From Escherichia phage Phi06_2974 B: a stretch of DNA of 5,624 bases. The stretch is from the sequence record KM389307.1; one strand, given 5' to 3'. Numbering within the stretch: position 1 is the first letter of the stretch; every line of letters begins with the position of its first letter. The notes under the pieces were generated by a model. The model did no database searches, was not told the DNA's origin, and saw only the letters and a program-made list of their open reading frames with translations. The translations under genes were made by a program, and so were the position numbers. Shown in pieces: positions 81 through 3,641 of this stretch.

Positions 81-662
81 TTACAATCCTACCGCGTCAT
101 CCTTCCTCTGACTATCTACCGGAAAATACCGGTAGAGCGTCGATAACCCCACCCCGTAGATAATGGCCAGTTGCTGGCGGGTATGCCCCTTAGCCAATAG
201 CCGCCCAATCTGTTCTCGCTCATGAGGCTTTAATGCGTTGGGCCTTCCACCTATGCGTCCCTGTGCTCTGGCTGCTGCTAACCCGGCCAATGTTCGTTCG
301 ACGATCAACTCACGTTCCATTTCCGCCAGTGCCGACATCACATGGAAAAAGAAACGCCCCATGGCAGTGCTGGTATCAATACTGTCTGTTAAAGAGCGGA
401 AGTGGGCACCGCGTTCATGTAACTCTGATATCAGTGCGATCAGGTTCTTAACGCTGCGCCCCAGCCTGTCCAGTTTCCACACGACCAGGGTGTCTCCGCT
501 ATTAACGCACTTTAAAGCGCGTTTCAGACCGGGGCGGCTGGCAACTTTTCCGCTCATACGGTCTTCAAAAATGCGGTCACAGTTTGCGCTTATGAGTGCA
601 TTACGCTGTAAATCGCTGTTCTGGTCGATTGTTGATACGCGGATATAACCAATGACGGCCAT
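81..662 (-). CDS. Serine recombinase, DNA invertase of the Hin/Gin/Cin/Pin (Din) family, 193 aa
   Basis: Translation from the ATG at 662-660 begins [23 protein letters not shown]... with the catalytic-serine motif (YIRVST), the conserved [15 protein letters not shown] and [32 protein letters not shown] blocks, and a C-terminal HTH region (LSTLYRYF). A strong SD (GAGGAGGAG, plus 668-676) sits 5 nt upstream. The ORF-track start at 731 is a TTG and would read through the crossover site; I reject that extension. Confidence 0.9.
575..640. promoter_or_regulatory. Predicted Fis-dependent recombinational enhancer (sis-like) inside the 5' end of the invertase gene
   Basis: In Hin/Gin/Cin systems the enhancer lies within the first ~150 bp of the invertase coding sequence, with two Fis sites about 48 bp apart. 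Here, in coding orientation, GTATCAACAATCGAC (plus ~624-638) and AAGCGCAAACTGTGA (plus ~578-592) occupy the equivalent positions, about 46 bp apart and about 105 bp from the left crossover centre. Assignment is by positional and sequence analogy to my recollection of the hin enhancer. Confidence 0.45.
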
Positions 663-689
663 CAATTCTCCTCCTCTATGTCGCGGTGG

Positions 690-720
690 GAGGATTTTTA
701 CAGATTTCGCTATGTGTAAC
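690..720 (-). promoter_or_regulatory. Possible weak sigma70 promoter for the invertase, adjacent to the left crossover site
   Basis: On the minus strand, GTTACA (-35-like) then a 15-nt spacer then TGtAAAAAT (extended -10-like) lie upstream of the invertase SD. Match to consensus is poor and spacing suboptimal. Confidence 0.2.
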
Positions 721-724
721 CGCT

Positions 725-750
725 TTTCCAAAAACCTTGGTTTGGGAGAA
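725..750. repeat. Left crossover site (hix/gix-like, 26 bp): TTTCCAAAAACC-TT-GGTTTGGGAGAA
   Basis: Two 12-bp half-sites ending in AAACC flank a TT core at 737-738. Positions 731-751 are a perfect 21-bp inverted repeat of 2559-2579. Half-sites resemble the Din-family consensus as I recall it (hix TTATCAAAAACC / TTCTTGAAAACC). Confidence 0.8.
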
Positions 751-1089
751 GCGGCTAAAAGGAATGTAGGGACAGGGGCGAATCAGATACCTGATATGGG
801 TAGCTTCACGCTTTCTGTTTCAGGTACTGGATATCAAAAATTACCATCAGGTTTTATTCTTCAGTGGGGCTCAATCGGCGCTCCAGGCATTGCACAGGAT
901 GTAGTAACCCATTTCCCGATTGCATTTCCAAACAGATGTCTGCGTGTTTTGGTCTCACAAGACTACACACCAGATAGCGGGGCTGTTGGTTATATTGCCT
1001 GTGCAGGTTTTAGTCCCGACCCGGTTAAATTTATATCCAGAGCCAGTACTCCTGGCCTCGGCGCTTCATTTTTAGCGTTAGGCTGTTAA
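751..1089 (+). CDS. Silent alternative tail-fiber C-terminal cassette (Hv'), no start codon of its own in this orientation
   Basis: The frame is open through the left crossover site, where it encodes F-S-K-N-L-G-L-G-E (724-750), matching F-L-Q-N-L-G-L-G-E in H. The variable-specific part runs 751-1089 with TAA at 1087-1089. It is followed 21 bp later by an SD and a tfa-like gene, mirroring the active H-tfa arrangement. Confidence 0.65.
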
Positions 1090-1110
1090 TTTAGCTATAT
1101 GGAGTGAAAA

Positions 1111-1551
1111 ATGAATTACATATATTCCGCGACTACAAACTCTTTCTATCCGCTGGAGATGAAAGAGGATTACACTCAAGCTGACTCATGGCCAGATGAT
1201 GCTGTTGAAGTTGATGAGCAAGTGTATATTGAGTTTTCCGGATTACCGCCGAAAGGAAAAATCCGTATCGCTGGAGAAAATGGTTTTCCTGCATGGTCTG
1301 AAATTCCACCACCAACACATGAGGAACAGATTGCTGCAGCCGAACTGGAAAAGCAGCAACTGATTAATCAGGCCAACGATTATATGAACAGTAAACAATG
1401 GGCTGGTAAAGCGGCTATTGGTCGTCTGAAAGGTGAGGAACTGGCGCAATATAATTTGTGGCTGGATTATCTGGACGCACTGGAGCTGGTCGATACTTCC
1501 GGTGCGCCAGATATTGAATGGCCTACGCCTCCGGCAGTTCAGGCCAGATGA
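1111..1551 (+). CDS. Tail fiber assembly protein (Tfa/gpG/U-like chaperone), alternative copy paired with the silent cassette
   Basis: ATG at 1111 preceded by GGAG (1101-1104). The 146-aa product has an acidic N-terminal half and the C-terminal motif APDIEWPTPP characteristic of Tfa chaperones. Position immediately downstream of a tail-fiber C-terminal cassette. Confidence 0.8.
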   Translation: MNYIYSATTNSFYPLEMKEDYTQADSWPDDAVEVDEQVYIEFSGLPPKGKIRIAGENGFPAWSEIPPPTHEEQIAAAELEKQQLINQANDYMNSKQWAGKAAIGRLKGEELAQYNLWLDYLDALELVDTSGAPDIEWPTPPAVQAR

Positions 1552-2116
1552 CATCCGGCGCGGTGCTGGTATCTGTTGCCGTCACCGCGTCAATGTAATC
1601 CAGCACAGCGTTAAGCCGGGTTGTTTCTGCCTGCGTCAGTTTCCGCCCGGCCTGTAATTTCAGCTGAATCAGACTAATGGAAGCCATTGCTGCATCAATC
1701 AGTGACTGGCGCTGTGCTTCTGCCGCTTCTACTGCGGCACTGTGTTGTGCCTCAGTATCTGTCACCCATTTCTCACCATCCCATTTATCATATGGCGTTA
1801 ACGGTGAAAGCGTGACATAACCGTTTTTGATGGCACCGATATAATCCACTGTAACAGCTGCGCCATTTTCGATTGAGTAAACAGTCTCATTGCGATGGTC
1901 CTCTTCATGGCTCCATCCCTTACCTGTAAATACAGCCACTTTTCCCGGAATGTTTTCGCCAGGGTCAATACCAGTGGAACAGGCGGGCATACTTACACCA
2001 GTATTAATATATTCATCAGACCAGCCCGTATATTCATACGTTACTGCATCATAATAAAAACAACGCATATCACCCGGCACTGTAGCCAGTCCATTTTCAT
2101 CAAAAACAGGTTTCAT
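1523..2116 (-). CDS. Tail fiber assembly protein (Tfa/gpG-like chaperone), copy expressed with the current H
   Basis: ATG (plus 2114-2116) overlaps the H stop as TAATG. The 197-aa product ends ...TAPDVIWPELPEA with the conserved Tfa C-terminal WP motif. Immediately downstream of H, as G follows H in P2. Confidence 0.85.
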   Translation of the reverse strand: MKPVFDENGLATVPGDMRCFYYDAVTYEYTGWSDEYINTGVSMPACSTGIDPGENIPGKVAVFTGKGWSHEEDHRNETVYSIENGAAVTVDYIGAIKNGYVTLSPLTPYDKWDGEKWVTDTEAQHSAAVEAAEAQRQSLIDAAMASISLIQLKLQAGRKLTQAETTRLNAVLDYIDAVTATDTSTAPDVIWPELPEA

Positions 2117-3060
2117 TATTTAGCCCTCACCAGAAAGTTAAATGCAATGTTACGTGGTCTGACGGCAATAAAATTAACACCATCTCCTACTGAGTTACTG
2201 GTGTACTGAAATCGAGAGAAACCTGGTTGGTGTGCTGATATTCCATCGTAATCAGCAATCGCATGGCCGGACCCTTCTGGATAATTACCGCCAAATTGCG
2301 ATAAAGCTGTTGCTGCCTGCCAGCTTAATAATGCTCGCCCACTGTCCGCCCCTCGCCCATCATCCCAGATACGAATGAAATCACCGCGGGCTTCAGGTAA
2401 TACCAGCGAAGGAAACACTTTTGCCAGCACAGGGTAATCAGAGGCAGAAAATTTCGCCCCGTTGAACTTCAAAAACACCATACTGGACCAGCTATCGATT
2501 ACAGTATTTGGCATTGCAGCGGACGGCCAGAAGAACGGAACGCCAATAGCTGGAGCACCTTCTCCCAAACCAAGGTTTTGAAGAAAGGCTGCCTTATCGG
2601 GAATATCCGCACCGTTCTGGTCTTTGGCCAGTTTCTCCGCCAGCTTGTTCAGCACTGTGGTCGCAAAGTTCGGATCGTTGCCAAGGGCATCAGCCAGCTC
2701 TTTCAGCGTATCCAGTGTTTCTGGGGCTGTACCTGCAAGCGCAGCAATCGCCCTCGCCACAAATTCTGTCGTCACCAGCTTTTTGCTGTTGTCATTAGCT
2801 GCAGGCGTGGGGGCTGTTGGCGTACCCGTGAATGTTGGGCTGGCCTTCGTCGCATACTGGGTATGCGGGTCGGCCGCTGCGATGTGTTTCGCGAGATCTG
2901 AACCGCCTTTTTCAACCTGCTGTTTCAGGTATGAAGTACGGCTGGCCAGCTGTTTAGCCTGACGGTTAGAAATTCCATCAGGCCCACCCAGTACGGGGTC
3001 GGAGACCTCAATCTGGTAGATGCCGTCTTCCCACTGCGGGGTTTCGGGTAGATTTGCCAT
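2116..3060 (-). CDS. Tail fiber protein (P2 gpH-like), 314 aa: constant N-terminal part plus currently joined variable C-terminus
   Basis: ATG at 3058-3060 with GGGAG about 9 nt upstream. Contains a Pro/Thr-rich linker (PTFTGTPTAPTPAA) and the motif LDTLKELADALGNDPNFATTVLNKLA, which matches the ALGNDPNFATT block I recall in P2 H and related fibres. Sits after baseplate genes J and I and before tfa. The stop overlaps the tfa start. Confidence 0.9.
   Translation of the reverse strand: MANLPETPQWEDGIYQIEVSDPVLGGPDGISNRQAKQLASRTSYLKQQVEKGGSDLAKHIAAADPHTQYATKASPTFTGTPTAPTPAANDNSKKLVTTEFVARAIAALAGTAPETLDTLKELADALGNDPNFATTVLNKLAEKLAKDQNGADIPDKAAFLQNLGLGEGAPAIGVPFFWPSAAMPNTVIDSWSSMVFLKFNGAKFSASDYPVLAKVFPSLVLPEARGDFIRIWDDGRGADSGRALLSWQAATALSQFGGNYPEGSGHAIADYDGISAHQPGFSRFQYTSNSVGDGVNFIAVRPRNIAFNFLVRAK
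2560..2585. repeat. Right crossover site (hix/gix-like, 26 bp): TTCTCCCAAACC-AA-GGTTTTGAAGAA, inside the H coding sequence
   Basis: Inverted copy of the left site with an AA core at 2572-2573 on the plus strand. On the minus strand it encodes residues F159-E167 (FLQNLGLGE) of H. Confidence 0.8.
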
Positions 3061-3062
3061 AA

Positions 3063-3641
3063 TTAACTGCTCCCGTGGTTATAGCTGCCGTCATAGTTGA
3101 CGGTGTTGTTGTAGCGAATGGCGGCAGACTGATACTCCAGGCTCGCCAGATGGCAGCGGGCCGGAGCAAAGGCAGCGAGCGTCTGGCGTAACAGAGCCGC
3201 CTGATCGTTAGTGATGGGCTGTTGAAGGATGACGCGATAGACCGCCCAGGCTTCCGCATCGCCGTGGACAAAAAGCCCGTTATAAGTGTGTTTGCCGTCG
3301 TATCCGATCTGGCCAGTGCCTTCAATCAGATCCACTTCGCCGAAGCCGAAACGGCGGATAATTTCCCGGATTGACCACGGCGTCCCTTTGTAGCGGTGCA
3401 ACTCGATAGCGGATTTGATAAGCGTGCGACGTACATCGTCTGACTCCGCCAGTTCCCAGCCGTCACCGAACAGCGAGAACTGTTCGCCCAGCCATGGCAG
3501 CGCAGAGCTGTCGACAATATCGACGAGGTAGACCATCAACACGCTCAGGTCGATGCTGTCCAGTCTTCCGGCCAGATTGCCCAGTGCCCTGAAGCTGATA
3601 TCACCCTCAAGTGCTGGCGGGAGTTTTAGCGTCTCAGCCAT
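3063..3641 (-). CDS. Tail/baseplate protein (P2 gpI-like), 192 aa
   Basis: Sits between the J-like and H-like genes as in P2. The likely true start is the ATG at 3639-3641 (GGGAG 6 nt upstream), overlapping the J stop by 8 nt; the ORF-track start at 3647 is a TTG two codons upstream. The P2 gpI call rests on gene order and approximate size. Confidence 0.8.
   Translation of the reverse strand: MAETLKLPPALEGDISFRALGNLAGRLDSIDLSVLMVYLVDIVDSSALPWLGEQFSLFGDGWELAESDDVRRTLIKSAIELHRYKGTPWSIREIIRRFGFGEVDLIEGTGQIGYDGKHTYNGLFVHGDAEAWAVYRVILQQPITNDQAALLRQTLAAFAPARCHLASLEYQSAAIRYNNTVNYDGSYNHGSS

Follow-up and report, generated by a model that had tools for sequence, protein, structure and literature searches.

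A probable recombinational enhancer of the Hin/Gin/Cin type within the coding sequence of a Hin-like invertase beside a prophage tail-fibre switch

We identified a region at positions 567–644 of the window (core at 575–637) that very probably represents the recombinational enhancer of a DNA inversion switch of the Hin/Gin/Cin type and that lies within codons 9–32 of the invertase gene itself. The window denotes here the whole stretch of 5,624 nucleotides from Escherichia phage Phi06_2974 B (Genbank accession number KM389307.1) that was analysed. The reading rests on sequence comparison and is supported by computational tests of a Fis-bound enhancer inside the invertase gene, all of which gave the predicted outcome; binding of Fis, and a dependence of inversion on Fis or on growth phase, would be expected by analogy with the characterised members of the family. 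Enhancers of this kind have been described for the Hin, Gin, Cin and Pin systems, the same DNA being both protein code and regulatory element. The present case adds a member that resembles Hin to an unusual degree in both invertase and enhancer and yet has a Gin-like layout, in which the invertase gene is not part of the invertible segment. The coordinates of the features are given in Table 1.

Table 1. Features of the inversion switch and its putative enhancer, in window coordinates.
Feature	Position	Strand	Basis and remarks
Putative proximal Fis core, centre 630	623..637		GGTCGATTGTTGATA on the plus strand; gene nt 26–40, codons V9–Q14
Putative distal Fis core, centre 582	575..589		GCGCAAACTGTGACC on the gene strand; gene nt 74–88, codons S25–R30
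Inter-site spacer with AT-rich minor-groove elements	599..613		TAATG 599–603, ATTTA 609–613, gene strand
A-tract flank of the distal Fis site	567..572		ATTTTT on the gene strand, codons I31–F32; outside 575–640
DNA invertase gene, Hin-like small serine recombinase, 193 aa	81..662	-	ORF and translation, Pfam
Crossover site L, hix/gix-like, 26 bp	725..750		Core dinucleotide 737–738; inverted repeat with site R
Crossover site R, 26 bp, within the tail-fibre gene	2560..2585		Core dinucleotide 2572–2573; direct sequence reading
Invertible segment, about 1.8 kb: two alternative tail-fibre C-termini and two assembly chaperones	738..2572		ORFs, Pfam
Tail-fibre gene, constant N-terminal part	2573..3060	-	Reads across site R into the facing C-terminus
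Silent fibre C-terminus, Gp53-like_C	738–1089	+	ORF and Pfam
Caudo_TAP chaperone	1111–1551	+	ORF and Pfam
Caudo_TAP chaperone	1523–2116	-	ORF and Pfam
Fibre C-terminal ORF part in the segment	2116–2572	-	ORF

The 5.6-kb window corresponds to that end of a P2-like prophage where the tail and baseplate genes lie, with homologs of the baseplate proteins V, W, J and I encoded on the minus strand (Pfam Phage_base_V, GPW_gp25, Baseplate_J and Tail_P2_I). The nearest phage record was that of Klebsiella phage KP12, with 92–95% nucleotide identity to the window, in which the invertase gene is named just 'DNA-invertase' and enhancer annotation is absent. The closest relatives of the window were prophages of Enterobacterales. 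Members of this order carry fis, and its presence in the host of the window was assumed from these relatives.

The invertase gene ends with a stop codon at 81–83 and starts with the ATG at 662, so that nucleotide n of the gene lies at window position 663-n. A mechanical list of open reading frames placed the start at a TTG at 731, which was rejected as an artefact, since the ATG at 662 is preceded by GGAGG and aligns with all homologs. The predicted polypeptide contains an N-terminal resolvase domain (PF00239, 2.6e-46) and a C-terminal HTH_7 domain (PF02796, 1.6e-14), has Ser10 and R43, and at 193 amino acids compares with about 190 amino acids typical of the DNA-invertase subclass. Its amino acid identity was 83% to Hin, 66% to Gin and 65% to Cin. 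In Hin, K47, R48 and K51 of helix B lie on the enhancer spacer and Q151, R154 and L155 are contacted by the β-hairpin arm of Fis, these six residues being conserved specifically in Fis/enhancer-dependent invertases (McLean et al., 2013; PMC3798978). In the class as a whole, positions 48 and 51 of the helix-B patch may be K or R. All six were found in the window's invertase; an outgroup recombinase from Coriobacteriaceae (L079) has S47, D51, M151, L154 and Y155 at the enhancer- and Fis-contact positions.

An inverted repeat of 26 nt (731–756 and 2554–2579, 92% complementary) was read against hixL to delimit the two 26-bp crossover sites, whose core dinucleotides, TT and AA, are complementary. 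The reverse complement of site L reads TTCTCCCAAACC AA GGTTTTTGGAAA, compared with TTCTTGAAAACC AA GGTTTTTGATAA in hixL, and the site is located 75 bp upstream of the invertase ATG. The peptide NLGLGE is encoded at both crossover sites, which allows the constant N-terminal part of the fibre to be read in frame into either C-terminus, according to the orientation of 738–2572. The tail-fibre ORF (2116–3060, minus strand) reads ...QNLGLGEGAPA..., and the silent alternative is in frame. A plus-strand ORF starting at 652 and running through crossover site L was dismissed as an artefact at that length, its frame being meaningful only from 738, as the silent fibre C-terminus. With an intact invertase, two sites and two C-termini with chaperones the layout is complete, and the switch is of the classic G/C/P-segment host-range type. 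Site L lies 107.5 bp from the centre of the proximal Fis core, compared with 106.5 bp in Hin, and this crossover-to-enhancer distance was 106.5–108.5 bp in 24 of the 27 loci in which the site pattern matched.

The invertible cassette itself is widespread: of 5426 complete E. coli genomes, 2658 contain it at 90–97% nucleotide identity, and the homology stops at the crossover sites. Loci L004–L007, which are close relatives of the window, have the invertase and the constant fibre part in common with it and carry different cassettes, homology breaking at 744–751 and 2555–2562. Horizontal exchange of cassettes thus uses the crossover sites as module boundaries. In Morganella morganii (L021, CP173058), two invertase genes of this family were found about 2 kb apart in opposite orientation (321–872 and 3001–3558), each with its own enhancer-like 5' region, which suggests a more complex, multi-invertase or shufflon-like arrangement.

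The enhancer of hin is a 65-bp element with a 15-bp Fis core at each end and 47 bp between the core centres, and its spacer includes two AT-rich stretches, ATTTA and TAATG, that are contacted by helix B of Hin (McLean et al., 2013; PMC3798978). For the window, the Fis cores were placed by alignment in register with hin and with the annotated enhancer of P1 cin. Homologous loci (80) were fetched from reference genomes, and two loci served as hin references, namely an authentic hin-fljB-fljA locus of S. enterica subsp. diarizonae (L024) and a locus from a metagenome scan encoding canonical Hin of 190 amino acids (L118). A preliminary description of this DNA had proposed two Fis-like sites with a centre spacing of about 46 bp within 575–640. 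The two sites were recovered in the hin/cin register, whereas the spacing had to be revised to 48 bp, with a core interval of 63 bp. It had also been right in assigning STIDQN and ISANCD to this interval, which corresponds to gene nt 23–88 and codons 8–30, and the sites do occupy the same gene-internal position as the Hin enhancer, being in register with both hin and the annotated cin enhancer, with no indels in codons 9–32 in 118 homologs and the two sites in fixed helical phase.

A stable Fis site is marked by an A/T-rich, compressible centre between Y-R steps at +/-3-4, together with G at -7 and/or C at +7; penalties attach to A at -4, to Y at -3 and to a purine at -8, and A-tracts in the flanks stabilise the complexes (Hancock et al., 2013, 2016; PMC3711457, PMC4784862). 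The proximal core of the window has G at -7, both Y-R steps and A/T at four of the five central positions. It is without C at +7 and has a nominally unfavourable C at +8, and both features are common to Hin, in which the counterpart of this core is GGTCAATTGTTGACA. The distal core, with GTGCAAATTGTGACC as its counterpart in hin, is a full match to GNNYRN5YRNNC. Its centre is A/T at three of five positions and thus includes two G/C pairs, one more than in Hin. This extra pair, a change from AAT to AAC, has its counterpart in site F27 (AACTT), which binds Fis indistinguishably from an optimal site (Hancock et al., 2013, 2016). Gene nt 23–88 showed 82% nucleotide identity to hin, compared with 74.5% for the remaining gene, and an 18-nt block, CGATTTACAGCGTAATGC, a further block, TGTGACCGCATTTTTGA, and the ATTTA and TAATG elements of the spacer were identical between the window and hin.

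A third sequence resembling the Fis consensus, GAAGACCGTATGAGC, was observed at 552–566 (gene nt 97–111), 23 bp past the distal site; it has G at -7 as well as C at +7. Its position, centred at nt 104, coincides with a conserved peak of the rule score described below in all three clades of the family and is the top site in Mu gin. In the window this third site is probably weak on account of its G/C-rich centre.

The consensus GNNYRN5YRNNC matched the window 28 times against 25.2 matches expected, that is, without enrichment over chance, and much of the Fis-likeness of the two cores resides at non-synonymous positions set by the amino acids; codon choice was therefore tested with codon-level null models. 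According to a rule score based on our own weighting of the qualitative rules in PMC4784862 and PMC3711457, and not on a curated Fis matrix, the two-site sum of the window fell in the top 3% of synonymous recodings, with the validated enhancers of Hin, Gin and Cin at 0.7–4% in the same test. With features scored unweighted as present or absent, the share of synonymous recodings in which both Fis feature sets survived was just 1.2% under uniform codon choice and 2.1% under family codon usage. The proximal feature set was kept in 97 of 118 family members, with 8.9 expected, and the distal set in 72 of 118, with 16.3 expected. All 66 unique homolog rows kept the proximal G at -7 and both Y-R steps, and 52 of them had A/T at four of the five central positions; one distal feature was missing in 12–24 of the 66. 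The enhancer haplotype of the window is the majority haplotype in its own clade.

Synonymous variation was analysed in a codon alignment of 124 unique homologs, in which each pairwise comparison was normalised for codon degeneracy and for the synonymous divergence of that pair, the homologs being phylogenetically related and not independent. The observed-to-expected ratio (O/E) for codons 9–30 was 0.76, a value as low as which was obtained in none of 20,000 column permutations, and decreased to 0.63 in the Hin-like clade; it was 0.93 for codons 3–8 and 1.05 for codons 34–180. Constraint was uneven within the element. The proximal core had a ratio of 0.51 and codons 31–32, which form the ATTTTT flank, one of about 0.35 (0.08–0.11 in the Hin-like clade). 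The distal core had a ratio of 0.69 in the Hin-like clade and 0.95, almost no constraint, in more distant clades. Synonymous sites were constrained in the very interval of the preliminary description, 575–640, with the constrained stretch running slightly past 575 to the A-tract.

Individual codons were close to fixed across the family. Ser10 was encoded by TCA in 116 of 118 homologs, with a TCA share of 14% elsewhere in the same genes, and Thr11 by ACA in 114 of 118 (97%, compared with 23% elsewhere in the same genes). The same comparison gave 81% versus 19% for Leu18 TTA, 92% versus 33% for Ala26 GCA, 86% versus 9% for Cys28 TGT, 94% versus 50% for Ile31 ATT and 95% versus 57% for Phe32 TTT. 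At codon 25, AGC (63) and AGT (26) were the sole serine codons among the commonest listed, and these supply the G at -7 of the distal core. The fixed third positions coincide with the Y-R steps and with the A/T centre. At the midpoint of the distal core, Asn27 varies freely between AAT and AAC, as the result for F27 predicts. The ratio for codons 9–30, the codon fixation and a recoding null of 1–2% together support the earlier proposal that this DNA serves as protein code and as a cis-acting element.

It could be argued that the Fis-like matches are a by-product of the conservation of the protein, that is, of RVSTxDQN and the residues that follow, and that the DNA has no cis-acting role here. 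The G at -7, the C at +7 and several of the Y-R positions do fall at non-synonymous codon positions, the distal rule score had a mean of 4.4 under recoding compared with 6.0 observed, and the consensus lacked enrichment in the window as described above. However, codon choice as judged by O/E, codon fixation and the recoding null far exceeds the demands of the protein, constraint is also seen in the spacer (Leu18 TTA) and the ATTTTT flank, neither of which belongs to the catalytic motif, and other serine and threonine codons are used in outgroup recombinases that share this motif. We consider this explanation very unlikely. In 14 outgroup small serine recombinases without the basic helix-B patch, Ser10 was encoded by TCG (5), TCC (5), AGC (2) and TCA (2) and Thr11 mostly by ACC, a control that is small and probably confounded by G+C content. 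No more than these 14 true outgroup sequences were recovered: a metagenome scan that started from the Coriobacteriaceae outgroup yielded mainly genes of the Hin-like type by way of the shared AMGRFFFH motif, and a scan of viral contigs returned mostly a sister clade of invertases.

This sister clade (L168–L235, from viral contigs) has the N-terminus MLIGYARVSTGDQNL, is 65–69% identical to the window's invertase and keeps K47, R48 and R51. At the position of the proximal site (gene nt 25–42) its members have a G/C-rich centre, GTCTCTACAGGGGATCAA, and mixed serine and threonine codons. The proximal Fis site is thus not conserved in register in the sister clade, the enhancer of which, if there is one, would have to be organised differently. 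In loci from Xenorhabdus and Photorhabdus (L031–L064), the proximal core is intact and many sequences at gene nt 74–88 are without G at -7, C at +7 or the Y-R step at -4/-3, for example AATATCAACTGTGAGTT; this lineage may have a shifted or weak distal site.

A true homolog of the Hin enhancer might also have been inherited and now be idle, either because the switch is inactive or because the invertase is independent of Fis, and Fis-independent mutants of Hin, Gin and Cin are indeed known (PMC3798978). Against this, the invertase ORF, both crossover sites with their matching core dinucleotides and both fibre frames are intact, the invertase segment spanning the known hyperactivating, Fis-independence positions is identical to that of wild-type Hin, the Fis-contact residues are kept and the window has the majority haplotype of its clade, which leaves an idle element highly improbable. 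That the synonymous constraint reflects another overlapping function, such as 5' mRNA structure, a translation ramp or an antisense element, is extremely unlikely: although codon usage is often atypical towards the 5' end of a gene, where this region lies, and an antisense ORF exists mechanically at 238–648 on the plus strand, the codons nearest the start (3–8) are unconstrained and codons 10–13 and 31–32 are constrained, RNAalifold returned an open chain for nt 7–108 of 35 diverse homologs (0 kcal, covariation absent), an Rfam search gave zero matches and no sigma-70 consensus was found on either strand of 1–1200.

The mechanism proposed for a recombinational enhancer at this position combines components verified in the window with the action known from the Hin system. 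Two Fis dimers would bind the cores, bending the DNA into an S shape, and invertase dimers bound at sites L and R would loop onto the Fis-enhancer platform in supercoiled DNA, at a supercoil branch; HU would probably assist in forming the loop to site L, which is short at about 100 bp. The β-hairpin arms of Fis are predicted to contact Q151, R154 and L155 of the invertase, while the basic helix-B patch of K47, R48 and K51 would rest on the ATTTA and TAATG elements of the spacer. These contacts with Fis and the spacer would trigger remodelling of the dimers into the active tetramer, in which one subunit rotation of 180 degrees would invert 738–2572, thereby exchanging the tail-fibre C-terminus and its chaperone and, with them, the host range. 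The bases of the putative enhancer also encode the region of the catalytic Ser10, so that codon choice there would be constrained by both functions.

An enhancer within the invertase gene marks a cis-acting element of a kind that gene callers never report, and predicts that tail-fibre switching in the prophage depends on Fis and hence on growth phase and supercoiling. The switch would then be broken silently if the invertase gene were recoded or codon-optimised. The family-wide codon analysis provides a clean in-silico demonstration of dual coding, in which constraint is far stronger at the proximal Fis site and in the A-tract flank than at the centre of the distal site. The understanding of how such inversion systems work is unchanged.

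Among the known systems, the hin enhancer of Salmonella enterica resembles that of the window in its position in the gene (nt 26–88), in a centre spacing of 48 bp when placed in the same register and in the proximal-site quirk of A at +7. The two differ in the distal centre (AACTG in the window, AATTG in hin) and at proximal position -3 (G in the window, A in hin). They also differ in layout: in Salmonella, gene and enhancer lie inside the invertible segment and a promoter is flipped, whereas in the window both lie outside and tail-fibre C-termini are exchanged. In an alignment of window 81–750 with 2914–3570 of the diarizonae locus (L024), the hix-to-ATG and hix-to-enhancer distances agreed within 1 bp.

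The enhancer of cin is annotated in public records (P1 cin nt 19–90, worded as 'enhancer of Cin-mediated C-segment inversion', and P7 nt 19–86) and covers the same codons as that of the window. The cin genes of P1 and P7 likewise serve a tail-fibre host-range switch from outside the segment. Cin is 65% identical to the window's invertase in amino acid sequence, with 72–73% nucleotide identity over the enhancer, and the distal centre in cin is GGATG. The 3' end of cin, and not the 5' end, abuts cixL, which places the cin enhancer about 500 bp from the nearest crossover site. The enhancer of Mu gin (sis) is similar to that of the window in being located in the 5' coding region, with a crossover site just upstream of the ATG (67 bp in Mu, 75 bp in the window) and a switch acting on the tail fibre. 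The proximal core of Mu gin, GGTCATTTGTTGATA, is nearly the same as that of the window; its distal core has a centre richer in G/C, the rule score in gin is highest at the third Fis-like site, with its centre at nt 104, and Gin shares 66% of its amino acids with the window's invertase.

Fin of Fels-2, a P2-like prophage of Salmonella, is also an invertase beside an invertible tail-fibre segment, and is reported to be able to substitute for Hin (Kutsukake et al., 2006, as cited in PMC3535392). Set beside the window here by its published description, Fin is 62% identical to Hin according to PMC3535392, compared with 83% for the window's invertase. We suggest only tentatively, as a possibility that is rather doubtful, that fibre switches of P2-like prophages with a Hin-like invertase outside the segment were the source of the domesticated flagellar switch of Salmonella. 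If so, hixL, hin and the enhancer would have been taken over as one intact module, with changes confined to the cargo and the second crossover site. The derivation of the flagellar switch from a prophage fibre switch is an old idea, and the closeness of the window to Hin, combined with a Gin-like layout, is compatible with it.
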